Shown here: piece after piece, positions 9,001-53,332 of the stretch
Position numbering within the stretch: the first letter of the stretch is position 1
Layout: the number at the start of each line of letters is the position of its first letter
Assembly: GCA_002245135.1 (NCBI GenBank)
Contig: NGBS01000608.1
Coordinates: forward strand, 1-64,000
Direction: 5' to 3'
Source: Proteromonas lacertae
Taxonomy: Eukaryota
Length of the DNA stretch: 64,000 nucleotides
Position numbers and translations under genes: made by a program
Notes under the pieces: generated by a model
What the model was told of the DNA's origin: nothing
What the model saw: the letters and a program-made list of their open reading frames with translations, nothing else
The model's database searches: none

Positions 9001-9833
9001 AATACAAACCTGATATACTCCCACTCTGGGTCTGATGTTGCTAATGTTGAAGGATTTGTGTCATCTTCAAGAATTACATCGATATCAAATCCACCATCAT
9101 TTCCTTGGGTTTCTAATCCATTGTCATAATATGCTTTCACTAAATCTGCCAAAATTGCATTCTTCACTAACACTATGGAAGAAAAACCTATTTGATTCAC
9201 TAATGGGTATTTCTTCAATGTGGATATTGTATTTGTTAAGTCTGTTGGTGTTTCAGGGAGTTCAATTATTTCTAGAGGAGGAACTGGGAAATATTCCAAC
9301 ATCTTTTTAACGGCTGAAGCATAAGGATGAGAGTTTTGATAAATAAATACACAGTCTCGGTTTTCATTAGCATAAATGTATACTAAAACAGAAAAACAAT
9401 AAATAATATAATATATACATCTTTCGAGTGTTTTGTATATCGATCCAAAGAATATAATATTGCTATATATCTGTGTTTCAGGTAAAGGGTGAATATTCCA
9501 CAATATCATACCATTATCCGATAACAGAGTGTTAATCTCGGTATAATTCGCAAATTTGACTAGATTGAAAATATTAAGAATGCCATTCTGTTTATATTCC
9601 AATAATACTTTTTCTAATCCTTGTCCATTACTACCTACTTCTTTACTTACTATATCTACAGTATATTTAAAAGTTGATGAGATGTTGACTTGCTTAAAGA
9701 AGTCATCTCTATAACCATCATCACTACTTGAGTGTGGATTATTCATTAAAAATCCAATTTTTATAGCATTTTTACAGCTGACTTGTGTAATCAGCAATAG
9801 AAGTGTTATAATGCCAAAATTAGTAAACTTCAT
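1..9833 (-). CDS. Giant secreted/surface protein with at least 9 tandem type-1 periplasmic-binding (UrtA/AmiC-like) domains; 3' end runs off the window
   Basis: ATG 9833 gives signal peptide MKFTNFGIITLLLLITQVSC. Short introns join ORFs 8895, 8467, 8260, 6996, 6152, 5882 and 1683. Repeated motifs INIGLLLSLSG...IN..GGI and FYPHDYEGLECKENIVYVG / IGEKCYKNVFYTGP / GGESCEKNIIHIG resemble UrtA YPVQYEGQECSKNIFYTG. Frameshifts/stops below ~1700. Confidence 0.8.
6954..7013 (-). other. U12-type AT-AC intron (60 nt)
   Basis: 5' ATATCTTTT, branch TTCTTTAAC, 3' TAC. Removal restores NIMV|YSRVNENSL. The nearby GT-AG option leads to an immediate TGA. Confidence 0.8.
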
Positions 9834-10406
9834 TATTAATGAAACGAATATATTTATATCGTTACACATTTTTTTAATATAAATCTTCATATTCGAGTGA
9901 TTAAAATAATATTTCCTCCTTTTGTTGAGCATATTGATTATTATAATAAGAGAAAATTAGATGAATAGGTGAAAATAGTTAATGAAAAGATACTGATAAT
10001 ATCTGCCTATATGATAGTATCATAAATAGGTTTCAAAAAATAAACTCATATTGTGATTGATAAGAGGTAATGAAACTAATTTCGACAGATATGGTGTCTG
10101 GCTGTTTGAAATACATTTTTTATTATAAAGGTAATAGACAGAAAACACATTGATTATTATAATACTCCTAAGTATTGAGTTTATCGTTTTAAATGGAACA
10201 GTTGTAGAAATAATTATAAATAATTTGAATAATAGTAGTATAATATGAATAGTGTAATTATAAAGTTTAATAAATGACCTATTCGTATTCTGACAGATTT
10301 CGTTAATTAAAAGTTATCATGATTATTAAACCCCATATTTGTGTTTGTTTTAAGATTTTAAGCAATTTGATTCATAATAAAACAAAATATAAATTACTGT
10401 TATTTT

Positions 10407-17492: not shown

Positions 17493-17798
17493 TTATTGTA
17501 AATTTTCTAACAAATCCATTAGACTTGAATCTTTTATCTTTACACTTTCTTTTAATTTGAATAACAACTCATAATACTTCCCATCTTTATTATGGCATTT
17601 CATAGTATTTATAGCTTTTTCAACCATTCCTTTATATTTCTTTTTCATTCTCTCATTAAATTCAATAGAGTCTGCTGGAAATAACCATTCTACCACTTCA
17701 TTATAATTTTCATTACTATAATTGAAATGATTAAGATAATATGAAATATAACACCTTGTTTCTAAAAATGGAACTTCTGCTTTACAGAATCGCTTTAT
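17493..17798 (-). CDS. Gene A: one truncated OGFr-N-like domain; upstream exons toward ~18070 are degenerate
   Basis: IKRFCKAEVPF...YYLN...VVEWLFPADSIEF...LFKLKESVK; paralogous to ORF 18626. Confidence 0.55.
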   Translation of the reverse strand: MKRFCKAEVPFLETRCYISYYLNHFNYSNENYNEVVEWLFPADSIEFNERMKKKYKGMVEKAINTMKCHNKDGKYYELLFKLKESVKIKDSSLMDLLENLQ

Positions 17799-18223
17799 CT
17801 ATTATATATATATATATTATACTATTTCTTTTTTCTCTATTGAATAACTATCTTTTTTACAAATCTTTATTCTTTTCCTTTCTTCATTGCATGTTGAGTC
17901 TATTTCCGTTAAAAATATCATTTCTTCTTTTCTGAGGAGTTGGTTCTTCTTCGAATGAGACTGATTGAAGTTATTAATCAATTTTATACTATTCAAATCA
18001 GATATTATATTATTCAGTTATTAATCGATATTATATTATCGATTTTATATTCGAATTTCACATTTTTCATTGCCTATTTGTAGATTTAACAACTACAGTA
18101 ACAACATAAGATGAGAAAGTAATAAACATACTTCATATTGGTGGTTATTTAACCATGTTGGAAATGGATTCATTTGTTTAGTATATCAAACAAATATTAC
18201 ATATATGAGCAAGATTTACAATT

Positions 18224-19333
18224 TTAAATTTTCAAATTATTCGAGCTTCGGCTTGATATTCTTTTATTTTTATTTATTAACATGCCATTATTATAAACTT
18301 TTTTAACAACTCCTTAAGGCTGAAATTAATTACTTTTATACTCTCATTTTAATCTCTTCTGCAATTCTAAAATTTTATCATACATCAGAAGAATTATCAA
18401 TAGTTATATATGGCTTTTTTCAATCCATTCTTTTAGTAATTTTCTTTCATTTGTATATCATTAAAATCATTTCTATCATATATTCAGCTGGGAAAAAGCC
18501 ATCTAATCACTTCATCATAATTACTAATTTTAAAATTGAAAATCTCTCATTATAATAATCTGAATATCACATGTGAGTGCTAGGAATAGACATACGACCA
18601 TTGTAAAAATTTATAATCTATACAATTATAAACAAAATAATCTTACATCTTCTTTTCTTATTTCAGCTGGATTTATATCATTATTATTATCTTGATTTTG
18701 AATTTGAGTCAGAATATTATCTATTTCACTTACATTTTCTTTTAAATCTGGACAAATTTTATTAACACTTCCACGAATTCTGAACAATAATTCAATGGCT
18801 TTCTTATGATTTGGAGATGATAATGCTACATCACAACCTTTTTCTACCATTTTTAAATATTTATCTTTAGTCTTTTCATCAAAACCAATATATTCTGTTG
18901 GAAACAGCCACTCTATTACTTCATCATATTTCTCAATATTAAAATTGAAATTACCTAAATAATATGTTATATGGTAAGTAGTATTAGGGATTTGAACAGT
19001 CTCCACTGTAAATTTTTATAATCTATATAATAAAAATACAAATTATATGTCTTACCATATCTTTATCTATTCCTCCTAATTTATAACTACTACGATTGTC
19101 TAAATTGTTTCTAATGTTATCTTTTTCTCTATTGTTATGTCTATAATCATTATCATAATTTACTTCATTATTATTTCTATTCTTGTTGTTATGAACATGT
19201 CGTTTTGGAGTTAATGGCCTAATCTCTTGATAGTGAAGGTATACCTTCCATTTTTACTTCGGATAAATGGATAATATTTTGTTTCATCATCTTTAGAATC
19301 CCAGTTATTGGGTACACTAATAATGAGTGACAT
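18224..19333 (-). pseudogene. Gene B: two OGFr-N-like domains with frameshifts (pseudogene or assembly errors)
   Basis: ATG 19333; IIKIYSG/..VIEWLFPTEY; second copy IINFYNGRMSIP...WLFP has stops and shifts. Confidence 0.55.
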
Positions 19334-19493
19334 TTATCAAATATCTTCTCAATTAACTATATTTCTATTATAACTATAGCTAATAATGTTGTTGTATTTT
19401 TGAATAAACTAATAGAGTTTTTCTTCTATGTAAAAACAATCAAAATCTATCAAGCCAAAAGCTTGATATGTTTATGTAATTATTTTTCTAAAC

Positions 19494-21691
19494 ATGTCTC
19501 AGAAGAATGATACTATAATAAAAAGGCTTGGTAGTGGTACATATGGAGTTGTATATTTGGTAAAACATAACAATGAAGAAGTATCAAGAAAAGATATAAA
19601 AGTTGATAAATCAGATCCAAAGAGTGTAGAAAGCTGTTTGAACGAGATAAATATATTGAATAGTTTAAGAGATAGAAATGTATTAATTTATAAAGGTTGT
19701 TGTTGTGATAAATCTACTTCTACATATTATTTATACACAGAATATATGAAGAATGGTGATTTATTTGATTATATAAAAAATAGAAGGATTCAAAAACAAG
19801 AATTTGGTTTATCTGAGATTAAAGAATTTGTAATAGATTTAGTCAGTGGATTGAAATATATTCATTCTAAAAGAATCATCCACAGAGATTTAAAACCTGC
19901 TAATATATTTATAGGAAATCATTATGAGTTAGTTATTGGTGATTTTGGTATATCAATGAATAAAAAGCTTGTAGATTATCAATTGATTGGAACAGCTGCA
20001 TATATTGCACCAGAACTATGGACATGCAGTCCACCTTCATATTCTGTAGCAAGTGATATATTTGCTTTAGGTTGTATTTTGTATGAGATATATACATTTA
20101 AAATGTGTTTTGATCGAATGAATAATATAGCAATTCGTAATTTGATATTAGATGATTATTATCAACCAGATTTCAACTGTAGAAAAGAAAAAATAGAACC
20201 AGTTAAAATTTTAATAACTGATATGTTAAAAAGAAAACCAGAGAAAAGAATCAGTTTAAGTGATATTGAAAATAGAATTAAGAATATGACATTAAAAAGA
20301 AGTAATTCAATGCCAGATGTTCTTAATAATCAAAATGAAAAAAAATATAATAAATTTATAGCAATTTCAAATAGAAATAACTCTGAAATAATACAAATTA
20401 ATAACAATTGTCGTAATTCCAAATCAATATCAATATCATCATCCTCCACCACCCCAACAACATTATCACTCTGCTGGAATTTATTATCAACAGAATTATC
20501 AACAGCCGTTTCAACTTAACCAGCAACAGCAACAACATTATCAATCTGACAATATAATCTATCAACAAAATCAATTTCGATCTCCTCCTCCTCCTCCTCC
20601 TCCACCACCACCACCACCATTACTGCTACAAAATATGCAATTCCAATTATCATCACCTCCTCCAATACACTATCATTCAAAGAAAAACAAAAAGAAAGAA
20701 AAGCAAAATAAAAAAAAGCAAAATAGGAAGAATAGAAGAGAATATAGTTCATCATCATCATCATCATCTTCAGAATCTGATGTAGAAATAGTAAAATCTG
20801 TAGATGATATAGATATACCAGATGAAATAGATGTATAATATATAATATATTAATTTTATATTTGAATAGATAATAAAGTTTTACTCAGGAAATAGTTGTT
20901 ATAAAGATAATGATTTAAACTTCTATTTGAATATGAGAGTTGATAAAAGTCAATCATATTTTAATGAAGATGATATAAAAGTATGAATCTAACGATTATA
21001 ATGAATAGTTCTTATTTCCAGAATTGAATGAATTTTCATTTACACAAAAGCAAAGAGATGAATTTATAAAGAATGATTTAATAAGATATTATTATTTTGA
21101 TTTAATCGTAATTGTAATAAAGGAAATATGGTTATATAATTCGAGATGATTTATCATTTGATAAAGATCCTGATTATTATGAGTATATTTATTCTGTTTA
21201 TTTATATAATAATGATAATAGAAAATGGAAAGGTAAAGAAGAAACAATGAAAATATTGAAAATGTTAAGAAGAAGTATAAAAGACACATTTAATGATAAT
21301 GAATATATAAATTTAATAGAAAAACTAATAAAGAATCGTATATAAAAACATATTTATATTAATTCTATAGAAACAGAAAAAAGATATGAAGATATGAAAA
21401 AAAATAATAATAGGATAATGAAAAGAAGTAAAAAAGAAAATTGTAATAAGAATAACTATGATAATATCGTTCTTAATTATGACAAAATAGAATTATGTGA
21501 TTCTGTGAAAAGAAAGAAAAATAGTGATGTTAGAATAGAAAATGGTGATGATAAAAATGGTATATTATTTATGTGTATATATTTTAGAAGAATCAAAAAG
21601 TATAAAAATTTCAATAATAGTTGTATATCTTACTGTAATGGCTTTTTGCTTATCAAAGATATTTTTATTTATAGGAATTTATGATAGTTAA
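19494..21691 (+). CDS. Gene C: NEK-like Ser/Thr kinase + P/Q-rich linker + OGFr-N-like domain + C-terminal TM tail
   Basis: GSGTYG, HRDLKPANIF, DFG, GTAAYIAPE. One frameshift near 20330-20420 and one near 21122. Exons IIKFYSGN...FLFPELNEF. Last exon EESKSIKISIIVVYLTVMAFCLSKIFLFIGIYDS*. Confidence 0.75.
20819..21378 (+). repeat. Inverted duplication, arm 1 (~560 bp)
   Basis: Reverse complement of 22662-23220, near-identical including introns. Confidence 0.95.
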
Positions 21692-21780
21692 TATGATAGT
21701 CATTTACCCATATGTTTATTTGTTACAACCCCCAAATTACATAATACAATAGAATGTTAATGCATTTACAAATTTAATTT

Positions 21781-23923
21781 CTACATAATAATACATCCAC
21801 CACTATGACTTTTAACTGATTCTCTACATTTTTCCAACCGATTTATTGTTTCATCATCGTTGTATATACTTTTTACACTTTTCTTCATTTGCTTCAATAT
21901 ATCACCTAAATTCTTATTATCTTTATATTTTCTATATCATTATATAAATAATAAATATACAACCAAATCTCTAAGTCAATTTTTGGTAATGAATTTCTAA
22001 TATCAAATCCGAATGTCTCAAGTATTCTATATAACAAACCATAATAATTACTTTTAATCATATTATCGTTTTTAAATTCATTTCTTTCGCAATCCTTCAT
22101 GTAATACTTCTCATCTTCAGAATCTTCAAAACATGGGTATAAAAACTATAAAATATTAATAAATACATAAAAGCAATGATATATATATATACTTTTCTAT
22201 TATCATATAGCCTATCAATGTTAGATAACCCATTATCAACATAATATTTAACATATCTTCCATAAAAAGGTGTTTTACCTTGATAAAATGTAATAATAGT
22301 AACTTCATCTGGCTTTTCGTAATTATCCAAATTATAATTATCTTGTTGATATTGTGGTGGATGATATGGCACTTCTACTATTGGTGGTGGTGGTTGTTGT
22401 TCTCCTTTCTATATCATCAGATGAAAAAAGATTTAAACTTTTTACACTATTCCATAGCCCAGATATAAAACCTGGATTATTATTATCATCATGTTTTTCC
22501 ATTCTTTTTTCTTTTTCTCTTACATTCTCATGATTATTTTCTTTGTCTTTCTTTTCCATTCTTTCATTATTGTCTTTTGGTTTTACAATTACTCCATCTT
22601 CTTTATTCTTATACACTTCTTGTTTTTGTTGTTGATATGATTTTATCTCTACTCTTTCTGGTTCTGTTTCTATAGAATTAATATAAATATGTTTTTATAT
22701 ACGATTCTTTATTAGTTTTTCTATTAAATTTATATATTCATTATCATTAAATGTGTCTTTTATACTTCTTCTTAACATTTTCAATATTTTCATTGTTTCT
22801 TCTTTACCTTTCCATTTTCTATTATCATTATTATATAAATAAACAGAATAAATATACTCATAATAATCAGGATCTTTATCAAATGATAAATCATCTCGAA
22901 TTATATAACCATATTTCTTTATTACAATTACGATTAAATCAAAATAATAATATCTTATTAAATCATTCTTTATAAATTCATCTCTTTGCTTTTGTGTAAA
23001 TGAAAATTCATTCAATTCTGGAAATAAGAACTATTCATTATAATCGTTAGATTTATACTTTTATATCATCTTCATTAAAATATGATTGACTTTTATCAAC
23101 TCTCATATTCAAATAGAAGTTTAAATCATTATCTTTATAACAACTATTTCCTGAGTAAAACTTTATTATCTATTCAAATATAAAATTAATATATTATATA
23201 TTATACATCTATTTCATCTGACAGTTTTACATTATCAGTACGTTTTATTTCTTCTACAGTAGGAGAATTATCAGAATCTGAAGAAGAAGATGATGATGAT
23301 GAACTATATATTTTTCGATTATTCTTTTTATTATCACCTCCCTTCTTGTTTCTCTTTGAATGATAGTTTATAGGAGGCGGAGGTGGAGGTGATGGTTGGA
23401 ATTGTTGTTTAAAAAGAGATGGTGGAGGATTTAACTGAGGTGGAGGAGGAGGAGGTGGTGGTTGGAATTGTGATTGCAGCTGTTGTTGTTGATATGAAGA
23501 TATTTGAGAATTGTTAAATGGATAATTTGGATGAATATTACCCTGACTAGGAAAGACTTGTAGTGGTTGTATTGGTTGTTGATACATTTGTTGTTGTGGA
23601 GGTTGAATTTGATAAGGTTGATATTGATTTGGATTTTGATAGGACATTGACAAATTTTGATTTGAAAGTAGTATATTACTATAACTATTAGAAGGTGTAA
23701 CTGTATTCGTATAGCTAGAAGGAACTTGAGTTACAGAACTATAATTAGTTGGCTGTGTATTATAATAAACATTAGATTGCGGTATTGACATACTCTTAGT
23801 ACCTACAGACAAATTTTGAGTATTATGAATTTGAATGAAGCGATTCATGGGTTGTGCATTTTGAGTTGGTGGTTGGTTTGAAGATTGGTAAATTATGTTG
23901 TTGCTTGGTTGTGTAGGTTGCAT
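21781..23923 (-). CDS. Gene D: P/Q-rich N-terminus + two OGFr-N-like domains + CaaX (CIIM)
   Basis: Spliced ORFs 23201, 22695, 22338, 22097, 21906; ends EKCRESVKSHSGGCIIM-TAG. Confidence 0.75.
22662..23220 (-). repeat. Inverted duplication, arm 2
   Basis: Matches 20819-21378 with only ~2 differences seen. Confidence 0.95.
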
Positions 23924-24286
23924 TATTTAAATTTTTCGACTTCTAATTGTTGTGTAAATTAAGAATATTTCTATCAAACCTTCAAGCCTTTTTTCTTTTT
24001 TAAGCTTAATCTCATCTGCTAAGCTTCATAAAGCTATAAAGTTATGATAAATAAATTAAAAATGTTTAATTTGGCATAACATAGATATGAAGGTTGTTTT
24101 TAGAAAATGTAAATAATTTTGACTAAAATTAATGCTTCAGGTTCTATGTTTATATAAAAATTCTTCATTTGTGTTTCTTTTTAGTTTATATCATTGAAAT
24201 TCATAATTATGTAATATTTTAACTGTTTTTACATAAATTACTAAAATTGGGGATTTAACGAAAATTTTCAAATTTTTATTTTTAGA

Positions 24287-27200
24287 ATGAGCTATAAGAC
24301 AGATGAAATTATAAAAACAATAGGCAAAGGGAGTTTTGGAGATGTATATTTGGTAATTAATAATGGCTGTGAATTGGCTAGAAAGGATATTAAGGCAAGT
24401 AGTTCAGATATGAGTGAGGTACATCACGAAATTGATCTTTTGAAAAAATTAAGGGATAGAAATGTAGTAATATACAAATATGACTTTTATGATAAAGAGA
24501 GTGGCATTTATCATATCTACACTGAATATTTTGCCAAAGGTGATTTATATAATAGTATTAAACAGCATAGAGATAGTAGAAGTGATTTTAATGAAAAAGT
24601 ATATTTTTGTTTTACATTTTCTTTACATAGACTATTATAAGTAGTATTAGAGACTTAGTCAGTGGATTGAAGTATATTCATTCACAAGGAATTATTCATA
24701 GAGATCTAAAACCAGCCAATATATTTATAGGCATTCATAATGAATTAGTTATAGGTGATTTTGGAATATCAATAAAAAAGAATGTAGATAATAGCAATCA
24801 TTTAATTGGAACAGCTGGATATGTAGCTCCAGAACTATGGACAAGTAATCCACCATCATACACACCAGCAAGTGATATATTTGCTTTAGGTTGTATAATA
24901 TATGAAATCTACAGTTTGAATTTATGTTACTGTGGTAATACATCAGCTGTAATTCGTAGTTTGATAATAAATCCGAAATATAAACCTCAGTTTCATAGAT
25001 ATACGTCAAGAAATAAAGCAATAGAAGAATTAATAATGAAGATGTTAGAAAGAGATCCAATGAAAAGAATTAAATTAACAGAAATAACAAATTTTATTAA
25101 TTCAAATAGTTTTGCTATTGATAATATACAGGAAACTCAATTTATAGATGTTAATGAGATGACACCTTTACAACCTCAGCAAATACAATCAGTTCCAATA
25201 CAGCCACCACCTCTTTCTCAACCATCTCAATTACCACGACAAGTACAATCTCAACAACAAATGCCAATACAACAGTTACAATTTCAGCCACCACCACTTC
25301 CTATACCAATTCAACAACCAGTATATAATAATCCCTATAATCAATATCAAATAACTCCACCTCCTTTTTATATTCCAGGTCAATCGTTTCAATTGAATTA
25401 TCAACAACAACAACAAACACAACAACAATATTATATGATGAATCAAAATACAGTATATTCAAATCAACCTACTCCACAACCACCTCAACCTCCACCAAAT
25501 ATATATCATCAACAACAACAGCAGCAACAACAACAACAACAATATCAAACTAAATGTGATGAAGAAGAAGATGAGGAGGAGGAAGAGGAAGAAGAAGAAT
25601 CAAGTGAAGAAGAAGAAGAGACTAATAAAAGACATAGAAATCATCATCATTATAAACATAAACATAAACATAATCACAGTAAATCTCATAAATCAGATAG
25701 TAATGATAATGAAGAAGTAGAAAGGGATGTAAGAAAAGAAAAAGGTGTAAAAGATGTAAGTGAAAAAGATGTTAAAAGTAATATGAAAAAAGATATAAAG
25801 AGTGAAGTTAACAGTGAAATGAGAAATCATTTATCAAATGTATAACTATTATGATATACTTCATATAGATATGTGAATTTTACAGAGGTAATTTTTCATT
25901 CAAAGGAAGAAAGATTATACAATATTTTCAATTAGATTTCAAAGATTTACTGGATATTGATTTTTATGGTGATAAATATGTATTATATAGTTTTATTATT
26001 TATATTGAAATAGTTTTATTTCCCAACGCTCAATCAAACAATATTTCCTTTTACCATAGATAATAGAAGCAGTATAGTGATTTTTTTAAATTTATAATAT
26101 AGCATTTAATAATGATGATATAATAAAAATTAATTATGAAAATCTTGTTGAAACTGCATTAAACAAATATGGTTATGAAGCAGAAAAGTATCCAGGAATA
26201 GTACATTCAAAAGGGTTTGATATGTTTAAAGGAAGAGATGAAACAATTAAAATGTTTCAACAAATAAGAAAATCTATTGAAGATATATACAATAATAAAT
26301 ACTACTTGGATATGATTGATGAATATATAGCTGAACGTATCTTTATTGATGTTATATATAATAGAATATGCTAGTAAGTATGAAAATGAACAGCCAGTTG
26401 TTGAAAATAGATATGAAAGATCTCCAATTATTGATTATTATGAAAATGAAAGAATTATATTAGGATATAAAATCAAAGATTTATCTAAACTAAAAAAAGA
26501 TGAATTTAGAAGAGAATGGAATGAGAATTATTATAAAGTATATTTTGTGTATGTTTATATCTTGTAGTGGATATTTCCTACTATTAGTCAAGAAGATCCA
26601 TCATTTACATTTGAAGATTTACAAATTCTAAAGAATAACAAAAATACTAAAGATATTTATAGAACAGTAATTCAGAAGATATTAGTACTTCATGGAATTG
26701 ATATTAAGAAAAATCAAAATTATAATTTGAATAAACAACACTCTTCAATATTGATAAATCAGATAGAAAGAATATCTCCATTTTTAGATTTAATGGAAGA
26801 TCAAGAATATTCAAATATGTTAGAATCGATTGAATATTCATTGAAAGGCATTATAGATGCAGATGAAGCAAAAACTGTTGTATTTTATTTAATTGTTATA
26901 ATATTTTAGAGTGATTTTCTTTTTTTTAATAAACCATTGAATGGATATACAATTACTGAAATTGAAGCAATGACTGCTGAACAGTTTTATGAGTTTGATA
27001 TTGATAAATATTTACCAGTATAATTCATTACTATTTCTTTTTATCATTTAGTGGATTTTTCCTAATTCGATTCAAGAATATCCTAAAGTATCACAGGAAG
27101 ATAAACATAGTATGATTTATTTGCAGTTTAACAAATTAATAGATATTGACTTACATTCTATGTCAATTATGGATATAACAAGAGATATTATTATTAAAAT

Positions 27201-29018
27201 ATTTCTGAAGTGTGGATTGAAAATATTAGACTATTCTACAGCTATTACTGGATGTAATAAAGATTGGATTAATAATTATGAAAAGCTGAAAGGATTATTG
27301 GATAAAGCAACTGTTTTTCATACAGAAACAACAAATAATCAATCAATTTTAGCATGGCTAAAAGAAGTTTGTCAAAATTTGAATGATTATTATTTAATAG
27401 CCAATGCAAAAGAATAATAACATATCAAATAGTTATGAATCAATAGTATAATTCATTACTTTAATTATTTAGTCTGATTTTCTGAGTAATAAAACTGCTT
27501 TCTATGGTTATAAATATAATGATCTAGTTAATAGTGATCAGATTCATTTCAATCAGTATGAAATTGATCCATTATTGCGTTACATATTTCCACTAGAAGA
27601 AGATGGATTTCTAACGGATGAAGATAAGAAATGTATAAACATTTTTATATACTTTTTGAATAGATATTAGTGATAATATTCATTCTCTAACTGTTAAGTC
27701 ACATATATTATATGATAAAATAAAAATAAGATATGGAGTTAATGTAAATCTACATAACAATTCAATTAATATTACTAAATATGAATTGGTTGGCAATACA
27801 AAAACTTCTATATTGATTTATTTACAAGAATAACATCTTTTTTTAATTCAATAAAATCAAATAGATGTGATGAAGTGCAAAATATATTAAACTACAATTT
27901 AGATAGTGATATATGTGAAGAAAAACGAGTATTATTATATTTAATCTTTCAATTAGATATTGATGTTTTATCAAGGAGAAACACATTTAACTAATGGATA
28001 TAATATACATAAATTCTTCAGTATGTCACAAAGAGAATGCTATGAATTCGATTTTAACTCATATTTATTTGTATATTTGATTATTTGATTATGATATGAA
28101 ATAGACATTAATGCCTATAGTTGGTCAAGAACACCCAAGATTTACTGAAAGTGATAAGCAAAGTATTGAATTACTATGTTATATTATGAAATAGTATTTT
28201 TACATGATGAAACAGTAAAATATAGATATAAAAGATTGTACAGAAAATACTATATCATTGTTCATTAAATTTTGATGATTTTTCAGGAAGAATCACAACA
28301 ATTATATCAAATACATTTAATACACCGATTAAAGATATTGATAAGGATTATTACTTAATCGAATAAAAGAAAGTGTAATATCAATATATAATGATAAAGC
28401 ATTGCCAATAATGATTGATACTTATCAATTGCATCCAGTATTTTTCTTTATTATGTTATATTTATAGTCAGTTTCTTTTTATTTAGGTGGATTTAAAGTC
28501 AGAGGCAAATATATTCATGAGAGTATAGAATATGAATATGTTTATTTTGATGTGAAAGAAGAAATTAATGTATATCACTTATAGATTATATATTCTTTAG
28601 ATATTTTTGCCAATATTAGGAGAAGGAAACCCTGCTTTTTCTTATGAAGATATTGAACAATTCCGAAATAATAATGAAATGAAGGATCGTTATTACAAAA
28701 TGATTATTAAATTGTTATCAACAATGAATTTAATTCAAGTAAATATTCACAGTCAAATAATTCAGAATGATCATGTCAATATTAATGAAGATGAAATGCG
28801 CATGTTAATAAGAATGAGAAATTCTCTAGAACATATATTTCCTTATGCAAGTGAGTATATAAGTCAGTTAGAAACTTTTATATCGAAAGGTATTAATAGT
28901 ATTTATTAACAATGCGACTGGTCTGTTATAATCTCTAGATTCTTTAATTTTGAAATTTTTTATCATTTTTATATGTTTATATGTGTTTCTACGTTTAGTA
29001 CAAACAATTTTCATATAA
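24287..29018 (+). CDS. Gene E: NEK-like kinase + P/Q and acidic linker + ~6 OGFr-N-like domains + C-terminal TM
   Basis: GKGSFG, HRDLKPANIF, DFG, APE. Repeats with FYFP/WIFP/YIFP/FLP cores. Last exon DSLILKFFIIFICLYVFLRLVQTIFI*. Frameshifts ~27.8-28.4 kb. Confidence 0.7.
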
Positions 29019-29200
29019 AATGTCTATAATCATCATTCTAGAAACATATCTAAAATTACTAAAAAAAGAGTCGTTAACCGTTAGCACATCTTTAGCATTT
29101 TCGTTATTATATCCTGCTCATTTTGATATAATTCTTTCACCAGAATTTTCAATAAATCAGATTACACACAGTATACCTTTCAAATATTCAATCAAGACAA

Positions 29201-32200
29201 ATGAGCGAAGAAAACATCTCAATCGTATGATTATTCGTTTACTTGTAGATTGATTTCTATTTCTATGATCTGCCTGTCAATGGAATGCTATTCAAAGACG
29301 TTTTAGCCAAAGATCAAGACTATTTCAACGACTTACCTCTAGATAAGTTCATTCCAGTATATTTCTCTAATATTATTTTTCCTACAGTGGATTTATCCAA
29401 AAGATGACCAAGATAATCCAAAATTTACTGAAGAAGATGATGCAAGTATTTAATCACTTTATTGATCATTTAGAATTGCATAGATATGCTGGAACAGCCT
29501 CATCAGAAGCAAGGTTATTCTTAAGAAAGTTCCTAGAAAAATATGGAATAATCCTACTCGAAACTAACATAATTAAGATGAAAAATGAGTATAATAACAT
29601 CTATTTAATGCATAGTAACTGGAAATCTAATGTCAATTACATTACAGAAGTCATAAATCGAGCATCTAATTTCATTCACATCCACACTCGTAATAGGTCA
29701 GCTATTCGGTTAATAAACAATTTATTAGTCCAATTACACGAATGCATGCCTGACGTAGCTGTAAGCGATGAAAATAGTGAAAATGAAAAATTCGATGATG
29801 ATGAAGAAAATCCTTTATTAGAACGTTCTATTCGAAAAGCATCTTATTATTTAGGATTAGAAGAGAATGATGAAAAATTAGGCTTTAATAATGATGATAA
29901 TAACAATAACAAAGATAAAATTTCACCAACAAGAGCTTTACAAAAGAGAAATTTAAAGAAGAGTATTAACAAAGCTGATGATGATAAAGTTACAATTGTA
30001 TTTATTTATTATTATTTGTTATTATTATTTAGAGTGATTTTCTAGGTAATTCAAAGAGTGTTAATAATTATATGTTTATTAATATATCAAAAATGGATCA
30101 AGATAAGTTTAATGAATTTCCATTAGATGAATATATGGTTGTATATATATATATTATTATTATTAAAAATATAGTGGTTATATCCTAACGGAACTCAAGA
30201 TAATCCAATGTTGACAGAGAATGATATAAAATGTATAGTTATCTTTATTAATTATAATGTTCGTATAGTTATTCGTTCTAATAAATACACCATCAGTGTA
30301 TTATCAAATAATATCTTTGATTTGATTTTGAACAAATATGATTTGAATTATAATAATAGAAGAAAAGAAGTAACTTCAGAATCAAAGTATTATTTATATA
30401 TATTTATATTTATATATATATAGGAAATGGGAAGATAATAAAGAATACTTAATTGAAACAATCAAAAGAGTTATCAACTTCTATCGAATAATGAATGACA
30501 ATAACAACCTTAAGAAATCAGAAATCGTATTAGATTACGTTGAGAATCATATAAACAATGAAGAAAACCTATTTGATGATGATAATAATGATGTGAATGA
30601 AGTAAATGAAGAAAACTTACCAGATAATGTCATTATAAAGAAAACAGAACAATTAAATGTTGATGAATCAGCTGCACCAACTGAGAATAACAATGAGAAT
30701 GTAGAAACAGCTAAAGAAGAATCTAATAATAATAATAATAGTGAAGAAAACCCAGTAAAAGAAGAAAGTGAAGTTGTTAAAGCTGAAGAAGTACAAAATT
30801 CTGAAGAATTGCCAGAAGAAGAAAGAAATGAAGAAAATAGCACAACAGAAACAGCAGAAGAAGTTAATAACGATAATGAAATAGTAAAAGAAGAAGAAGA
30901 AGAAGAAGAAAGTAATGAATCACCAGCAGTTATACAATCTGAAGATAATAATTATGCTGAAAGTAAACCAAATGAAGTAGTGGAAGAAGGTGATGTAACA
31001 GTAAGTCAATTCCTTGGTAATGAAAAGAGTGTTAATAATAATAAATACAAGGAAATATCAGTAATGGATCAAGATACATTTAATTCATTTCCACTGGAAA
31101 ACTATATAAATGTATATCTATAATCTATTTTTAAAAATATAGTGGTTATATCCAAACGAGAATCAAACTAATCCAACAGTTACTGATGAAGATATTAAAT
31201 GTATAGTTATTTATTTATAATTAATTAATGTGTTTGTATAGTTATTCAACGAGAAAAGACCCAAATTGGTGAAACATCAAGATTAATATTAGATTTAATC
31301 TTAAAGAAGAACGACTTAAAGTATAGTAATAGAAAGAAGGAAGTAACAGAAGATTCACCTAAATGGAGAGACAATAAAGACAATTTAATTGAAATAATGA
31401 AAAGAGTAATCAGTTTCTATGATATGATGGGAGATAAGAATAGAATGAAAGGTGCTGAGATAATATTGAAATATTTACAGAATAATAGCAATAGTAATAA
31501 CATTTCATCACCACCTCCTCCTCCTCCATCCTCATCTAGTGGAAATGATAGTGAATTGGTTAAAGCAGATGAAATGACAAATGCTGAAGAAGTTCCATCA
31601 GCAGAAGAAAAACCAGCAACTAAAGAAGAGAATGAAGTAGTAGAAGCTCAAGAGGTGGTTAATGAAGAAGAAGCTCCAAAGAGAGAAGAAGCAATTCATT
31701 CTGATGAATCTGCTCCAGTTGTAAAAGAAGAAGAAGAAGAATCAGAAACAGTAAAAGAACAAAATCAAGAAACAGTAAATCAAGAAAATCCAAGAAAAGA
31801 TGAAGTTGTGAATGACGACAATAGTGAATCTGTTCCTGTTGAAGAAGCAGAAATAAAGAAAGTAAGCGTAATAACAGAAAATTCGGAATCTACTCCATCA
31901 CCAAACATTTCACCAGCTCAAAAACAAGAAAATTCACCAATTAAAGTTGAAAAAGAAGAATCAATTGTATTATATATTATATATTTTATTCTATTAGACA
32001 AAATTCTTGAGTAATATTACTCCTGTCAATGGAATATTATTTGTAACAATCACCAAAATGAATAATGACAAATTTGAGAATATAAATATTGATGATTTCA
32101 TGAAATGGATTTTCCCATCAAAGAATCAATCAGAACCTGAATTGAAAGATAGTGATATAAAATGTATAGTTATTTAGTTATTTATTGATTATTATAGATA

Positions 32201-34492
32201 TTAAAGATAAGAAGTATGATTTAGGTATTATGACGTTTAATATCTTCAATTTAATCATTGAAAAATATGGTTTGAAATACATCGAAAGAAAAAAAGAAGT
32301 TAAAGAAATCAACAAATCATACAAAGATGAGCCAAATAAAGGTAAAATCTTAGAATTATTAAACCAAATGAAAGAATATTATGAAACAGTAATGGTTGAT
32401 AGAAATCGTAAAACAGCTTGTGAATTAGTCATTGAATATATACAAAAAGGAGGAGGAGGAGATAGTAATACAACAATAGTTTCTTCACCAACTAGAAATT
32501 CAGATTTACCACCAATTAAACCGCCATCTCCATCAAAATCTTCAACAAATAAACAACAACAACAACAACAAAATAATTCAAAAACTCCATCAAGAATAAC
32601 TCATAACAACAATAATAGTAGTGAAAGTGTGAAAGTTGATACTTCTGAAGAAATGTTGACTCCAGCAAAGAACATCACTGAGCGAAGAAAAAAATCTATT
32701 TTTACACCTCCCAAAAAACTTGAAAAACCATTGGATGAAAATTTCCATGAGATTTGTAGATTTTACAGTGGAAATGAAGAATATAATGGATATTTAATTA
32801 ATGATTACTTAGAAATGAATAATTGTAAGTTAATTAGAGAAGTGATGAAGAATTTACACTATTTCTTTCCACTAATTGGAGAAACAATTGAAGGTGTTCA
32901 ATTCAAAGAAAAAGATAAATATATATTCGTTTCAACTTTGGTTATTCGTCAAAATTTCAACCGTTTTATGGATTATATATTAGTTGGATTAGGGATAAGA
33001 GAATTGGAAGAAAATAATTCATTAAAATGGGTTAATAATAGCCAAATCTATCCATCTTATGAATTGAAAAAGATTGTGAAAAGAATGAGAGAATGTTTAT
33101 TACAATTATTTGATAAATGGGTTGTATATATTGAGAATTTAAATACAATAATTAAAGATAATAATATAGAAAAGGAATTAAAAGATGAAAATAATAATAA
33201 TGAAGAAGAAAATGGAGGTCATGATATTCAATTTAATAATGATTTGAACCAAACAATACAAATGAAAAATAGTATTTATTATGATAGATTACATCCAGTA
33301 TATATATTACAATATTTATTATTTATAGATTTTAGCATTTTATTCTGGTTCAATATCTTATGATAAATACATCTTAGATTACTTTAAACTTAAACAAAAT
33401 GTATTAATCGATGAAATTATCAAAGAAAAATCATTCTTTTATCCAACACTAAACAACTGAAGAAATATCTCCAGAATTTGAAGAAAATGAAGTAAATACA
33501 ATGAGAGAAGAATTAATAATTCGTCAACATTACAACGAACTGATTTGACTGCGTATTATGTGGTTTAAAAATAAGAGAAAAAGTGAAAGGATCAAGCCAT
33601 TACATTTGGAATGATTTTGACAAGCTGAGGTTTGATGAAGATGAAAAAGATTTGATAAGACAAATGAAAGAAAGTGTTGAATTGATCTATCCAAAGTGGA
33701 AAATATATATTGAAGCATTGGAGAAGGTTATTGCAAGATTTAATGCTGTTATTGTTAAAGAGAATAGCTAAGAAGATATTTGATAAAGAATATATTCCAC
33801 CTGTTAAACCAACAACAACATCTACTCCAGTTAAACCAAAGAGTGAAGAACAAGAGGAAGTTAAACCAACAAGTGAAATAGAAGAAGTTAAACCTGATAG
33901 TACAGAGAGTAAACCAACAACAACAACAACTGAAGAGGAAGTTAAACCAACTGAATATCCAGTAGTAACTGCCACTTATATAAGTGATGATAAACCAGAC
34001 AATGAAGCTGAATTTAAAAAGATGATTCAACCAGTTCGTAAATCAACAATTCACTATGAAGATAATATTCATCCTACATTAAAGTTCTACAGTTGTAATT
34101 ACAATAGCGATAAAGACGATGAAAATTTGAATATTGAAAAATACTTTGAATTAAGTGGTGATGAATTACTTACAAAAATGATAGGTAAAATTGAAATAAT
34201 CTTCCCATTCGTTAATGAAGGAAATCCAGTGTTTTTAAACAGTGATAAAGAGAAATTGACTGATGATATAATCATGAGACAGAACTACAACAGACTGGTT
34301 GATAATGTGTTAGTAGAAATGGGAATTAGAGGTAAGAGAAAGAGTAGTCAGTTGAAATGGAGTAAGAGTGATTTATCTAATATGAGTGACAAGGTGATCA
34401 CTATTTTGAAGAGAATGAGAAAGAGTATAGAGGATATATTCCCTTCTTGGATAATTTATTTGAATGTGTTGAATAAATTATTGGAAAATTAA
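29201..34492 (+). CDS. Gene F: ~7 tandem OGFr-N-like domains with E/N/P-rich spacers
   Basis: MSEENISI|IDFYFYDLPVNG...; repeats with WIYP, WLYP, WLYP, WIFP, YFFP, FFYP, IIFP cores. Frameshifts in the 6th repeat (~33.45-33.78 kb). Confidence 0.7.
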
Positions 34493-40641: not shown

Positions 40642-42023
40642 TCACAATCTACTCAAGCATTTCATTCGTTTATTCAAATTATAACACTCTTCTTTCATCT
40701 CATTCAGTATTTCATTCTTCCGCGATGTGTAATAGAATATGCAAAGGAAGAAAACACAAGATACAGTAACAAAAGCACTAACCACGAATGGAACTCTATG
40801 GTGAATAGTATACAATCCACCGAATATAAGTGGACTAATAATTTGACTTAAACATGAAAAGGTATTAATAGTTCCTAGAATTTTACCTTGATTCTTACTA
40901 GAGAAATATGACTAACCAAAACAGAGTAACTTGATACAGTCATACCAAATCCAAGCAAATACACTACACTGCCACTCATTACGATTGAAAATGGTGTTGA
41001 TATAATGAATATCCATCCAATAATTTGAATAATATATCCTATAAACATTGTATGTCCAATATAAACATATTTACATAATAATGGAAAAAGAAATAATTGA
41101 AAAATTGTCATTATACATGAATTAAAAGATGCAATACCTCTATATATAATTAAAAAAGGAATATATATATACGCTAATATTACTTGGTTATTAGTATAAT
41201 CATCTTTTAATCTTTTACCTAAATAAGAAGAATTACACATTAATGCAACATTATCACACAATGATAATATGCAAATAATATACTATAAATAATAACATTA
41301 GAAAATATACAATTGATATGTTGGATAAATCCTGATTTGAAGTATCTTCACTTTTGTTATTATTTTCTTCAATTTCTATTTTTCTCACTGCATCATTACT
41401 TTCGTGAGTCAATAATCTCATACTACTTCCTATATAATAATAGAATAGATTATGCTTTGATTATCAAAGTCAAATTTTGGACTGTCATCTAACAGTATCA
41501 AATCAACTACAAATATTAATGTATAAACTACACCACACATAGAAAATGGAATCCAATTGCCATAGTTATATAAAACACTACTAACAAGTGGACCAATTGA
41601 TAATGAAAGTGTTGAACAACCAATTATTCTACTTAAATATTTTGTTTTTTCTTCTTTCTTTACACAATCTGAAATATAAGCTTGACAAGTACCAAGTGTA
41701 GTTCCAAAAAAGCCAGCGATGAATCGAAACAATATCATGAAATAAATTGAAGGTGAAAACATTTGTAATACTGCGCCTAGCATTGATCCAAATAGTGTAA
41801 TTAAGATCAGTTTCTTACGACCAAATTTGTCACTTAAATAACCTGTTGGAATATAACTAATGAACTGAGCAGCAGGATAGCTTGAAAATAGTAAAGAGTA
41901 CAATAAGTTGCTGTTATTTCCAGCATAAAATGGTAGTAATGGCATTATAAAAGACATGCATGCCATATCTGACACTACAGTTAAGAATATAAGTACCAAA
42001 TTCTTTTTAAACTTGTTGTTCAT
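40642..42023 (-). CDS. MFS transporter (DHA1/TetA-like) copy 1, with a 1-bp frameshift and a GC-AG intron
   Basis: GYLSDKFGRKK motif A. One base is missing near 40903 relative to copy 2. Intron 41430-41455 starts with GC. Confidence 0.85.
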
Positions 42024-42164
42024 TTGTTAGACAAAAAATGTTTTGTATGTCAAGCTTTTCTTCAAATCTTTGTGTTTTATTTTTTAAATATCATTGTATA
42101 GATTCTATATAACATTAAATCACATGTTTTTATTTAATATATGTGTAAAGCTGATTATACAAAT

Positions 42165-42359
42165 AAAGAGTAATACCTTTTGATTTAATACACAAAGAAA
42201 GACTTATAAGTATATATATATCATAAAAATAAGAGAAATATTTACTTCATTTGTTTATTCAGGTTATAACACTCTTCTTTCATCTCATTCAATATCACAT
42301 TCTTCCTCGACGTAAAGTAGAATAATAACAAGAATAAAACACAAGCAACTGAAATAAAA
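42165..42359 (-). pseudogene. 3' remnant of an MFS copy; direct repeat of ~46443-46684
   Basis: 42253-42359 matches 46578-46684 with one mismatch seen. Confidence 0.9.
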
Positions 42360-42616
42360 TTAACTCAGATTAATACATACTTTAAGTTGAGGTTAAAATT
42401 ATGGTTATAGCACTAACAACTATTGAGAGTTATTCTTTAACAAAAAGATAAATAAACATATTTGAATATAGTCAATATAATAATAGATCATTATTGCTGT
42501 ATAGCAAAATCATTAGTTAATAAGGAAATTAATTAGCATATTGAGATAATTCTTCAAATGTAATACACACTGTTCTTGCTTTATCCTTTGCTAGAGCATT
42601 TAAAATAACTTTTTCG

Positions 42617-45600
42617 TCATGCCTCTAAATCATTAGGAATAAAATTTTTAAGCCATTCTGGATAGAATTTCATACTTCTATCATCTACTTCATTTATACT
42701 TACTGTTTCATTGGGACTGATGAAGAATAAACCAAATGGACTTTTCTTTGTAACACGTGTAGTATTGCTAATATCATTTATGTGATTATAGTGTTTGTAT
42801 ACATGTTGTAGTATTCTAACCATCTCGGGTGAAAAAGTATGGCTATTACTAATCGTAAGTTGAATACCAAAAGGACCAATCATTCCGTCAATATCGGGGA
42901 AATTTGTTCTGTAACTTAAGTCTAGTAAGTACATCTTCCCTTTTTCTTCTATTTTCTCTTTAATTTCATCATCATTTCTCACTGCAACCACTTCTATTTT
43001 CTTTTCACTTGTTGAGAATTCTTTTCTAATATTCTTTTTATCTTCTCTATTTATGCCAATCACATCTACATATGTATCTTTTAAACTCTTGTTTTCACTA
43101 CACATTCTATTAAAAACTAAATTCATAAAATTATTATCTACTTTCATTAAATAAAATACAATATTCTCATATAAGCATCCTTTTATACTTTCATTTCTTA
43201 ATGTTAACAATAAATCTATCATTTGTATACATTTTTCTTTTGTTGTAATTTTAAATATAGATTCTTTCACCATATTTTTTACAGTTTCAGATATAAATGT
43301 TAAGTTATCGTATATTCTAACATCATCTTCATAAGTTTTATAAATAAATATATTGTTGTTGTATTTACCTTCAATTATATCCTTTATTCTAATCTGTTTA
43401 ATTTCATAGTCTATTCCACTCTGATCAATTCCATTATTTCCTATTACACCACCATAATATTCATAGTTGTTCCTGTAATTTTTTCTGATTTTGTTATATG
43501 AAACAAACGAACGTTTATTATTTAGTTTTTGTTGAAGAAATCTATTTTCATCAAATTCTTCCTCTTTTATTAATGACGAATTTAAATGCATTTCTGTAAT
43601 TGCCATATTTGACACATGTACATCTAAATCATGTTTATTCATGAAGCAATTGGGATAATTTCGATATAATTTATATTTTGGATGTTTCAGAATTATCACT
43701 TTTTCCACTTCTTCTTTTGTAAATGGAGGTATATACATCACAAGTGGACATCTTTTACTTTGAAATGCCTTATACTCTTCTTTTGTTTGATCAGCTATTA
43801 ATATTATCATTTTCGCTTCTGGATATTCATCTTCACCAATTACAGCTCCAAGTGAAATAACAATATATGGTTCAGTATCTTTATAGTTATATATATTTTC
43901 TTTTCGTTTTTCTTTATCATTAATTGTTATTATTTTGAAATTTTGATTGTTTTGATGAATATGTTCTTTTAATACAGCTGCTAAGACTGTTTTACCAATT
44001 CTTTCATGACCAAAAATTAAGTAGTTCTTTTGATTTTCATTAGTAAAACTGTAATCATTATTAAAAATAACATCAAGTATCTTTTTATAACAATCTCGCA
44101 TTAAATAAATTCTTATATTATTCTCTATAAATGCTTCTATTTTCTCTGGTTCTTGTACTTTACATAATGGAGGCGGAATTTTTGTATTTAATCTTTCTAT
44201 TAATTCATTCCTACTTCCATTTGCATCTAATCCATTCATTGTTAATATATTCTTTAATTCATCTTCTGTTAAGTTATTGTAATCATAATCCATTTCTTCA
44301 TTGTTATTATATCCTTCTTCTTTTGCTTCTTCTTCTGTTGCTGCTTTTGCTTCTTCTTCTGCTGCTGCTGCTTCTTCTGCTTCTGCTTCTGCTTCTGCTG
44401 CTTTTAATTTATTAATTAATTGCGCCTTGTTTCCATTTTTTGTTAATCCTTTCTTTCCTAATAATTCTTTTAACTGAACAACTGTTAATTCTTCATAATT
44501 AACATTATTTTCACCTCCTACACTTACTATATCAATTTTATCCCCATCTTCTTTTAATATACAATAAACAAATTTGCTATTTTGGTTCTCATTATAGTTC
44601 TATTATATATTATAAGTTATATATAGATAATACTTTTACTGATTCTTCCATTTTATTTTTAGTATCATTATTATCTATAAATGTCTCATTGTTATATAAT
44701 ATTTTTATAAATACACCATTCATAATTAAGTCAAAATAACTATCTTTATCCAATATAAAATAAAGAAAATTCTTTGCACCTACAGGACAGTATAGTGAAT
44801 TCTTTTTCGTTGACTTAAATTGAAAATATTCATCTTTATTCTCAATTTTGATTACTTCTGTTGCTAGTTGATACGCTGTAATTTGTTTCAATGCTACTTT
44901 CTTCATATCCACATCAGCTATGCTACTGTAATTCTTAACTAGATTAAGATATTCATCATTATTTCTAGGAGGATAGAAATTATAAATTATGTAATCTTTA
45001 ACATATTTTGATATAAATTTCAAATGATCTTTGTTTGGTTGATATACATCATGACGTAAAATTTCATTATACATCTTCTTTAAATCATATTTTAATATGA
45101 TATTCGACAAATCTTTTCTTTTTAAATAATTATTATTCTTATAATTATTTAAAAATTTGTCATAACCATCTGAACCTACAACACCTTCTATGAGTTTTGT
45201 ATAATATTTCCAATAATCTTCATTATAATTCTTATTATATAAATAACTGAAGTACACTAACCTGGGAATATTACCATAACGTTTACAAACAAGTTTAAAA
45301 CTATCACTTTTTACATCAACATTATCAAAACCAATACAATTCTTAAACCAATTCTGAATTTCCTTAAATGTTAATGATTGAAAATATAATTCGACTTTAT
45401 ATTCATTCTTTAGATATATATCATTATTCTCTTCGTCTGGAGAACTAATAGAAATAACTGTATTATCATTTTTGAAATGCATATTACAAGTATCCACTAT
45501 TATTATTGCTTTGCTAATAGCAGAAGTATCAATATCACTTAGAGTAAGACAATAACTCATCATTGTCGTATATACCAATCTATAAACTTTTGTTTTTGAA

Positions 45601-46181
45601 TAATCACCATGTTTCTTACCTTTTACAACAAATACACCACCTGTATATCTTTCATTCCAAAATGGATTCTTCTTTAGTTTGTATAATAAAAAATAAATAA
45701 ACGAGGTCTTACCAATACCAGGCTGACCAGTTATTACTGCATTCCAATGAAACTCTTTTTCAATAATTTTCTTTATATCTTCATACATGCTATTATAACA
45801 TTTTCTGATGTAAACTTTTTTCTTAGGAAATTGAAATACATTTACATTAACACTTGAAAATTCCAAATACTCACTATCTGCACTATTATCTTCTTCATCT
45901 TCATCATCATCTTCATCTTCTTCTTCATAATCATCTTTTTCATTTGGTATTTTGGTTAGATTCATAGAATTAATGATATCCACAAAACTATCACTTATTA
46001 TATCTACTATTCTTAGATAGTTATTATCTCCTTGGTTATTACCACCTCCATTTCCATTCATATTCATAACTGGAGTTGTGCCTGAAGCTGTATTTACAAA
46101 TCCACCTGTATGTTCATCTTTACATTCATCTTCAGCTACGTTTTTACCTTCATCTTTATTTATAATAGAATCTTGCTCCAT
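42617..46181 (-). CDS. Crinkler/RHS-type protein: P-loop NTPase - degenerate REase - SAP - SAP - NTPase - PD-(D/E)XK-like REase
   Basis: Phase-0 intron 44600-44633 joins the two ORFs. VYIRKCY..VITGQPGIGKT; SAP motifs LTVVQLKELLGKKGL..NGNKAQLI and LTEDELK..L..NGL..NGSRNELIERL; YLMRDCY..GHERIGKT; NFPDIDG...IQLTISNSH. Confidence 0.75.
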
Positions 46182-46563
46182 ATAATTGTTTAAAGGCTAT
46201 TAAGTGAGATATTAAGGATTATAATTTCAATCAAATCAAATCAAACCTAATTTTATCAGTCAATAGAGAGAGAGAGAGAGATGTTGATAACAAATGAATA
46301 ATTATCTTTTTTCATTAACTTTCTTCGGGTCAATTATTATCTTAAAATAAACTATATTACCACATTGTTATAAAAATATTAACTGATGATACTACTATAT
46401 CATCTTCCACTTCGAATTAAAAATGGTGTAAGGAGTAGAATTAAAGAGTAACACATTCATGTTGTTGATAAAGCATATTCAATTTAATAGCACAAAAACA
46501 CATATTTAAGTATATATATCATAAAAATAAAGAGAAATATTTTTCATTTAATCACAAACTATT

Positions 46564-48032: not shown

Positions 48033-48246
48033 TCTGTTTTTAATAAAGAATCAAATATTTACAAGCTGTACTTCAAGCTTTTTGTTTTAATAAACCTTCA
48101 TATTTCATCTTTTAATTCATATTGAAGTACTGAGACATATTATTGTATATTCATTTTGCCTAATACAAAACTAAATCAATAGAATACATATAATTCAACA
48201 AATATATGATAATAGCATAACTATCCATTTAGTTATATATCCTATA

Positions 48247-49610: not shown

Positions 49611-49811
49611 TGAATTTTATATTCTGTCAAGCCAAATTCTTTTATGATTTGTGTTTTTCTTATTGTATAGTTCGTATATTATTGCTAGAAGATATTCATT
49701 TATCATGAATTGTAATGTTAATAGCAATGCCCCCATATATTAAAACACAGATAAATCAAATGAACTCTCTAATGAAAAGATGGACATTTAAACGATACTA
49801 TGCTAATAATA

Positions 49812-51269: not shown

Positions 51270-51839
51270 TTTATAAATTGTGATTGAAATTTGATTCGCT
51301 GTTTGATATTATCAGTTGTTCTATAAGAAATTATTTAAACAAGGTTTCTTTGCGTCATAAGTATTAGTAATTATATTTATGCAATTTTACAGAAAAGAAA
51401 AAATTAAAAAGGCTTCTAATTAAAATATTGAAGAATTTAACTTAGTTTCATTCTATAACTGACAGAATGAAACATATGGTTAGAATCACTAAGATTATTT
51501 CATCAAAATACCTTAAAGTATGTTATTTGTGTTGTTATGAAAAAAATAATGATCAAGCTTTTTAATCAAGCCTGATTTTGTTATTGTCAATAATATCTCA
51601 TCATATACATCATATGGAATGATGAAATGTATATCTCGCTATATATACTACAAAATAAATTAATATACCCCCTATAACAATAGAATAGGCAAATAAAATA
51701 ATTATAAATATTAAAACAAATCTATCTAAATGATGCAATACTAATATTATTAAATTGAAGTATCTGAAAAAGGAGTTATATTCAATAGCACAATTCAACT
51801 AAAGATAATAAGGTAAAAGTAAACTTTACATTGATAGAG

Positions 51840-53165: not shown

Positions 53166-53332
53166 GATGTTTTTATTTAGTGAATATAACTGGATGAAAT
53201 GTTCAGCTAGTTAAATAAAATTATTGCCACAGTTGAGTATATGTATAAGTAAATAGAATGATGTAAAAAAGTTACAAACATAACAGATGAACAATCGAAA
53301 ATATCAATTTATTTTTAAAATAACAACAAAAA

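Follow-up and report, generated by a model that had tools for sequence, protein, structure and literature searches.

Positions 17493 to 34492 of a Proteromonas lacertae contig (NGBS01000608.1) hold a cluster of genes in which one protein module of about 135 amino acids recurs many times, in some genes downstream of a protein kinase domain. What is this module, and what might it do beside a kinase? We analysed the surrounding 64,000 nucleotides of DNA (the window), which are gene-dense and have a GC content of about 26%. Gene models were built from the DNA alone, using a simple spliced predictor and hand curation, and contain short GT..AG introns, mostly GTAT..TAG, of 24–47 nt. Six gene models, A to F, were obtained within 17493–34492, containing 18 translatable modules (A1, B1, C1, D1–2, E1–6 and F1–7) and a degraded copy, B2, which matches the total of about 19 counted in a first-pass annotation of the same DNA. 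On the predicted structures and profile comparisons described below, the modules are a divergent subfamily of the OGFr_N domain (PF04664) that keeps the predicted fold and is invisible to Pfam.

The repeated module and its relation to OGFr_N

The repeat was tested with a leave-subfamily-out hidden Markov model (HMM) and 200 shuffles per module. With their own subfamily left out, 16 of the 18 modules scored 37.9–67.3 bits, the shuffle maxima being no higher than 17.2, and B1 scored 19.2 bits, a value that none of its 200 shuffles reached. A1 was the weakest module at only 7.5 bits (2/200 shuffles), even with its 37% identity to B1; both are short versions of 101–106 aa without the middle part. 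Intron positions also recur between copies. A phase-0 intron lies directly before an aromatic-x-aromatic-Pro motif in 11 of the 18 modules, and a phase-1 intron follows about 20 codons past that intron in eight. In 12 modules a phase-0 intron also falls at the start, in either of two places separated by a single codon. Paralogous modules are mostly 7–38% identical, the exceptions being F2 and F3 (57%) and C1 and D1, which are the identical protein bar a frameshift. No further copies were detected elsewhere in the 64-kb window (best E 0.7).

When 23 exon and open reading frame (ORF) pieces from the window, including the intron-free F5 and F7, were scanned directly with Pfam, no OGFr_N match appeared at E≤10; homologous modules of the lineage gave none at E≤0.01, and the modules miss the Pfam gathering threshold for OGFr_N (22 bits). 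A module-only profile made from 15 window fragments was searched against 1.84 billion proteins (E≤0.001) and returned 59 matches, 29 of them OGFr_N proteins above the Pfam cut-off (best E 1.7e-8) and a further 29 divergent-type modules without an OGFr_N match; the last, P0020, proved to be a spurious match to a repeat and was set aside. Alignment with hhalign to 21 canonical OGFr_N members gave probabilities of 98.5–98.7% over 86–124 columns, with templates that were chosen by the same module profile and so are not fully independent. Ten of the 18 spliced modules outscore all 300 shuffles against the OGFr HMM. In a phylogenetic tree the eight canonical sequences included fall on one side of a 99/99 branch, with all the window modules apart from them.

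An AlphaFold (AF2) model of F5 was built from a 33-row alignment without canonical OGFr sequences and so provides an independent structural test. This module-only model has a predicted local distance difference test score of 96.7 and a predicted template modelling (TM) score of 0.89. Its top Foldseek match in BFVD is a marseillevirus OGFr protein (E 2.9e-3, probability 1.00, TM 0.67), with the next match at only E 0.46; the comparison is between two predicted structures, and a PDB sequence search found no solved OGFr_N structure. Searches of PDB sequences with the module and canonical profiles gave nothing significant, and Foldseek against the PDB with a canonical OGFr_N model gave no match at E≤0.001. 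The best PDB matches by VIA-align, with Z scores of 7.4 for the canonical model and 6.2 for the module (the Smaug PHAT domain), were not accepted as relatives. Rv1873 (PDB 2JEK), which we take to have the DUF1810 fold, appeared in the structure searches of both models (canonical: Z 6.8, root-mean-square deviation 4.0, 117 aligned; module: Z 5.2, 4.1, 113 aligned), at Z scores such as generic helical packings also give.

The remote homology to OGFr_N is supported by these profile, alignment and model comparisons. The first-pass annotation had recognised the likeness in the motif order and looked to Pfam and to predicted structure for its confirmation; a match is absent from the plain Pfam scan and present in the profile and AlphaFold/Foldseek comparisons. 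Canonical OGFr_N, found in human OGFR and OGFRL1 and, in bacteria and viruses, as a protein of its own of about 170 aa, has the same motif order and predicted fold, whereas the modules are about 135 aa long, lack the last helix, occur in up to seven tandem copies and are found fused to Ser/Thr kinases. Kinase fusions were absent from the long canonical OGFr ORFs (17 scanned of 21) and from the 29 canonical matches.

The subfamily differs from its parent in its polar residues. Using the numbering of P0029, H35, F42, P43 and W114 are invariant in the 21 canonical OGFr_N sequences, and Q39, S48, H120, N121, R124, T126, R127 and W166 nearly so, giving a pattern of His and Gln ahead of W-x-F-P, then His-Asn-x-x-Arg-x-Thr-Arg and a C-terminal Trp helix. 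The set compared with these comprised 52 module sequences: relatives supplied 35 and the window 17, with C1 dropped as a duplicate. The loss of His and Asn remarked on at first pass proved to be complete and to extend further: H35 (0/42), Q39 (0/41), H120 and N121 (0/49 each) and R124 (0/50) are retained in no module, S48 is retained in 4/43 and R127 in 25/50, and the last helix, bearing W166, is absent. The scaffold residues F7, P43 (44/44), P55, D61, G87 and W114 are retained. No new invariant polar set has replaced those lost, the most conserved new polar site being a Gln in 28/43. Judged from sequence, such losses fit an enzyme that has died or a binding domain that has been rebuilt, and the lost polar residues would line one pocket. 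Pseudo-enzyme sensor or docking domains, such as dead Macro or sirtuin domains, likewise keep their fold, lose their catalytic residues and are fused to a signalling enzyme, but in the present case the chemistry of the parent domain is itself putative.

The kinases and their fusion to the module

Genes C and E each encode a Ser/Thr kinase domain on the forward strand, at 19494–20318 and 24287–25110 respectively, the latter containing one 32-nt intron. Both were identified with Pfam Pkinase (PF00069; E 4.2e-54 for C, 3e-12 and 3e-33 for the two exons of E, with the gene model joining the exons) and they are about 52% identical to each other. The first-pass annotation had called them intact-looking, and the Gly-loop, catalytic Lys, αC Glu, HRD-K-N, DFG and APE motifs and the subdomain IX Asp are all present in both; the kinases are intact in their motifs and are predicted to be active Ser/Thr protein kinases.

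In gene E the kinase C-lobe and the linker form a single 404-codon ORF (24631–25845), which ends at a 29-nt GTAT..TAG intron followed by E1, which is without a usable start codon, and the kinase–module fusion is in frame across canonical introns. Four relatives, P0016, P0068, P0069 and P0072, carry a kinase and then a full module in a single ORF (59–77 bits). In P0035 a module precedes a kinase N-lobe, again in a single ORF, and in P0074 a partial module precedes the kinase (19.1 bits, 0/500 shuffles). The kinase–module fusion is supported as a real and recurring architecture that occurs in both orders. Two fusions had been proposed for the window at first pass; that of gene E stands with the splicing as modelled, and that of gene C requires a frameshift to be bridged, as discussed below.

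The kinase search gave 23 matches. The six closest include three with a full module and one with a partial module, and the other 17 have none. The closest kinases are 40–55% identical and are all unnamed relatives from the lineage, while named kinases are 31–34% identical. The description of the window kinases as NEK-like is weakly supported, as the best single-domain PDB match, NEK1 (E 2e-29), is nearly equalled by B-Raf (4e-29). NEK kinases share the plan of an N-terminal Ser/Thr kinase, a linker and repeated C-terminal modules; the window kinase differs from them in its short activation segment and in having an OGFr-like module attached. Expanded sets of NEKs with C-terminal interaction modules occur in protists. 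For Giardia, 198 NEKs are reported.

Full-text searches of the literature, judged on titles and abstracts, found no paper on kinase–OGFr fusions or OGFr tandem arrays, with subscription journals, InterPro architectures and supplements outside the search, and the supplements of genome papers could list kinase–OGFr genes. The first-pass annotation had likewise known of no such architecture.

Possible roles of the modules

The reading that we favour, and hold to be evenly poised between right and wrong, is that the modules serve a lineage-specific Ser/Thr kinase family without catalysis, in docking or regulation. OGFr_N-derived modules that kept the predicted fold without the family's invariant polar residues would target or control these kinases, and the kinase-free arrays of genes D and F would likely be scaffolds. 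What the modules bind would be proteins, whether substrates, the kinase itself or partner arrays, and not a small ligand, and the window genes would be spliced as modelled. No strongly hydrophobic segments were found in the cluster products (highest 19-residue hydropathy ≤1.55), which is consistent with soluble intracellular proteins.

Conservation among relatives bears on the array of gene F. Position-specific counterparts of F4–F7, E1, E2, E6 and C1/D1 exist in related DNA at 45–84% identity: four for F5 (62–82%), two for F6 (59–71%), one for F7 (71%), one each for E1 (71%) and E2 (61%), and two each for E6 (45–47%) and C1/D1 (49–52%). The order of F4–F7 is orthologous in P0001–P0003, P0008 and P0009, and the tree has a starred clade for each of F5, F6 and F7. 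Across four relatives the F4–F5 linker is 24–74% identical, compared with 62–82% for F5; the F6–F7 linker is 14–39% identical, compared with 60% for F6 and 72% for F7. The modules exceed the adjacent linkers most clearly in distant relatives (62% versus 24%). Modules F5–F7 would, on these comparisons, be under purifying selection, and because they form orthologue clades and are conserved above their linkers, array F is old and has been kept up one position at a time. DNA scans of genome and metagenome contig collections based on F5 found no relative.

Intact OGFr_N occurs in bacteria and at 55 viral loci, of which many belong to contigs of >100 kb; a phylum-wide search for PF04664 gave matches in 2 of 301 genomes and no informative fusion. 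An OGFr ORF was present at 136 loci. Of these ORFs, 21 are longer than 235 aa, and a non-redundant set of 17 was scanned for a second family. NADAR and UBA each occur in one of them and a deubiquitinase in two, a further one lies within an RNA-virus replicase, and the rest have no second family. The NADAR fusion is a phage-contig protein (L025:3356–4486). In the replicase ORF (L056:166–6270), which has methyltransferase, helicase and RNA-dependent RNA polymerase domains, an intact OGFr_N lies at aa 582–701, between the methyltransferase and the helicase. L038, L045, L060 and protein P0063 join OGFr_N to a UCH deubiquitinase, a UBA domain or a histone fold. P0058, P0059 and P0060, from other organisms, have two tandem OGFr_N copies each, those of P0059 and P0060 being partly degenerate and still above the Pfam cut-off. 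Two plasmid OGFr_N genes (L142 and L143) lie no more than about 1.3 kb from WYL-domain genes, in both annotated cases. A 99-member bacterial cluster in the ESM Atlas fuses OGFr_N to ADP-ribosylglycohydrolase, a combination on which a literature search found no papers; an ESM Atlas search with a canonical member, PF04664 left out, gave no usable feature match. In the literature, the molecular function of OGFRL1 is described as poorly understood (PMC11062026), and a nematode protein with a short OGFr_N match (PMC5876317) and OGFr expression in a ciliate (PMC11308186) are also recorded.

Several observations weigh against a stable kinase-docking family. The gene C fusion depends on bridging one frameshift (~20418), which splits the kinase from the linker and module. 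The kinase-linked modules of relatives are mostly 30–35% identical and are not one-to-one orthologues of E1, and C1/D1 arose by a very recent inverted duplication; the kinase-linked subset therefore turns over, and in this it resembles defence genes. A site for a small ligand may also have been rebuilt from new residues, and the eight single-base frameshifts, all in genes C, E and F, that were assumed in about 12.9 kb of modelled coding DNA could, together with the degraded B2, be real decay. Turnover is what would be expected if the modules were a diversifying array of defence receptors or decoys coupled to kinases; they might, for instance, be bait for viral proteins aimed at OGFr domains. 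This reading, which takes up the defence array of the first-pass annotation, draws further on the low identity between paralogues, the several kinase–module fusion architectures, the recent C/D duplication, the decayed B2 and the frequency of intact OGFr_N in large viral contigs. Against it stands array F, in which module order and identity are kept across relatives and F5–F7 are conserved above their linkers. Pocket-equivalent positions are identical between orthologues at 54/80 (68%), compared with 857/1388 (62%) elsewhere (P=0.34), and so look neither hypervariable nor specially conserved. The cluster is flanked by Mpv17 and HSF, with no defence genes adjacent, and we consider the defence array distinctly unlikely. 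Least probable of all, in our estimation, is local decay, by which the frameshifts are real, genes A, B and C have become pseudogenes along with parts of E and F, and functional copies survive only in relatives. The frameshifts in the gene models (forward strand; C ~20418 and ~21123; E ~27790, ~28231 and ~28346; F ~33452, ~33546 and ~33757) speak for it, in a window where a 1408-codon ORF elsewhere runs uninterrupted; an ambiguous intron in gene E (27367–27400) has a ninth frameshift as its alternative, and B2 carries many indels. Once indels are bridged, however, C, D, E and F contain no substitution-type stop codons. The F6 region, broken three times in the window and uninterrupted in relatives P0003 and P0008, has a branch no longer than that of the intact orthologue (0.35 versus 0.40). 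Part of gene C (20819–21377) repeats the D1 region (22663–23220) almost exactly in inverted orientation, introns included. In about 560 nt the two stretches differ at one substitution and one indel, and the duplication would be a recent gene conversion or an assembly artefact. A homopolymer test of error origin was uninformative, with 6/8 frameshift sites near a run of at least three and a background of 59%. On the reading that we favour, the frameshifts would mostly be sequence errors.

A different kind of alternative keeps a small ligand, with the modules acting as pseudo-enzymes that still bind ADP-ribose or ADP-ribosylated molecules, so that ADP-ribosylation would switch the kinases in the signalling of stress or DNA damage or against viruses. 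Dead enzymes often retain ligand binding, and intact OGFr_N is fused to ADP-ribosylglycohydrolase in the bacterial cluster and to NADAR in L025. It also sits inside the replicase L056, and Macro and NADAR domains are embedded in RNA-virus polyproteins, in an account whose available part leaves OGFr unmentioned (Iyer et al. 2022, PMC9503650). Sirtuin, Nudix and Macro domains, including ThsA-Macro, make up 5 of the 124 immediate neighbours scanned (136 were listed, with duplicates left out), a count without a control. NADAR, Macro or SIR2 lies within 2.5 kb of viral OGFr at 3/47 sites compared with 0.94 expected, a clustering that is not significant (P=0.07) in the 35 viral records covered, out of 39. 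NADAR is present in 18 of these 35 records, which was not counted in favour, given that NADAR occurs in about 48% of medium and jumbo phages (PMC9503650). An ADP-ribose role for the parent domain is a good lead, not a result, and ancestral OGFr_N may have been an ADP-ribose-related enzyme or binder. For the modules themselves such a role is unlikely, as the invariant polar residues and last helix are gone, which makes an intact old pocket improbable, and OGFr_N's own activity is putative. It is equally doubtful that a dead ADP-ribose-processing domain has been turned into kinase-wired readers, giving an undescribed eukaryotic ADP-ribose-sensing kinase pathway; if it had, the pathway would be a natural experiment pinpointing the active-site residues and ligand of the domain in human OGFR. 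The clean loss of the invariant polar residues with the fold kept marks those residues as a candidate active site in intact members. With the ADP-ribosylglycohydrolase, NADAR and viral-replicase fusions, the proposition that OGFr_N works on ADP-ribose becomes testable, the modules providing a matched dead control.

Layout of the cluster and other features of the window

Genes A, B and D lie on the reverse strand and C, E and F on the forward strand. Gene A (17493–17921) has the one short module A1 (17798–17498), and its true start may lie further upstream, in an indel-rich stretch up to ~18170. The degraded copy B2 (18250–18600, reverse strand) contains several indels; it was located by tblastn and HMM (12.8 bits) and still resembles B1 (tblastn E 4e-4) and A1 (6e-5). 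The readable part of gene B (18634–19333; gene model and HMM) comprises an Asn-rich N-terminus and the short module B1 (19055–18706). Beyond its kinase, the gene C model continues through 20319–21691 with a Gln/Pro-rich and basic/Ser linker and then module C1 (20870–21334). The gene D model (21781–23923) has a Gln/Pro-rich N-terminus and modules D1 (23169–22706) and D2 (22297–21819) without a kinase, and no kinase remnant was found upstream of it.

Gene E continues beyond its kinase through 25111–28909 (gene model and HMM), with a Gln/Pro-rich and acidic linker followed by six modules: E1 (25869–26333), E2 (26427–26838), E3 (26877–27410), E4 (27443–27893), E5 (27957–28432) and E6 (28468–28886). 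Gene F (29201–34492; gene model and HMM) is also without a kinase and carries seven modules separated by acidic/Pro-rich spacers, namely F1 (29222–29731), F2 (29995–30536), F3 (31001–31472), F4 (31964–32437), F5 (32752–33157), F6 (33329–33742) and F7 (34076–34487).

The following genes elsewhere in the window lie on the reverse strand. Very long gene(s) of repeated periplasmic-binding-protein domains at 1686–9956 probably encode a large receptor. Two tandem Na+/H+ exchanger genes (49815–53210) are 44–51% identical to proteins of Clostridia and Bacteroidales and are likely to be a transfer from gut bacteria. Two adjacent ORFs at 42620–46196 encode SAP domains and a P-loop NTPase with a weak nSTAND3 match, presumably resembling Crinkler/RHS-type NTPases. 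This SAP/NTPase gene sits between members of a set of three tandem major facilitator superfamily transporter paralogues that spans 41433–49616.

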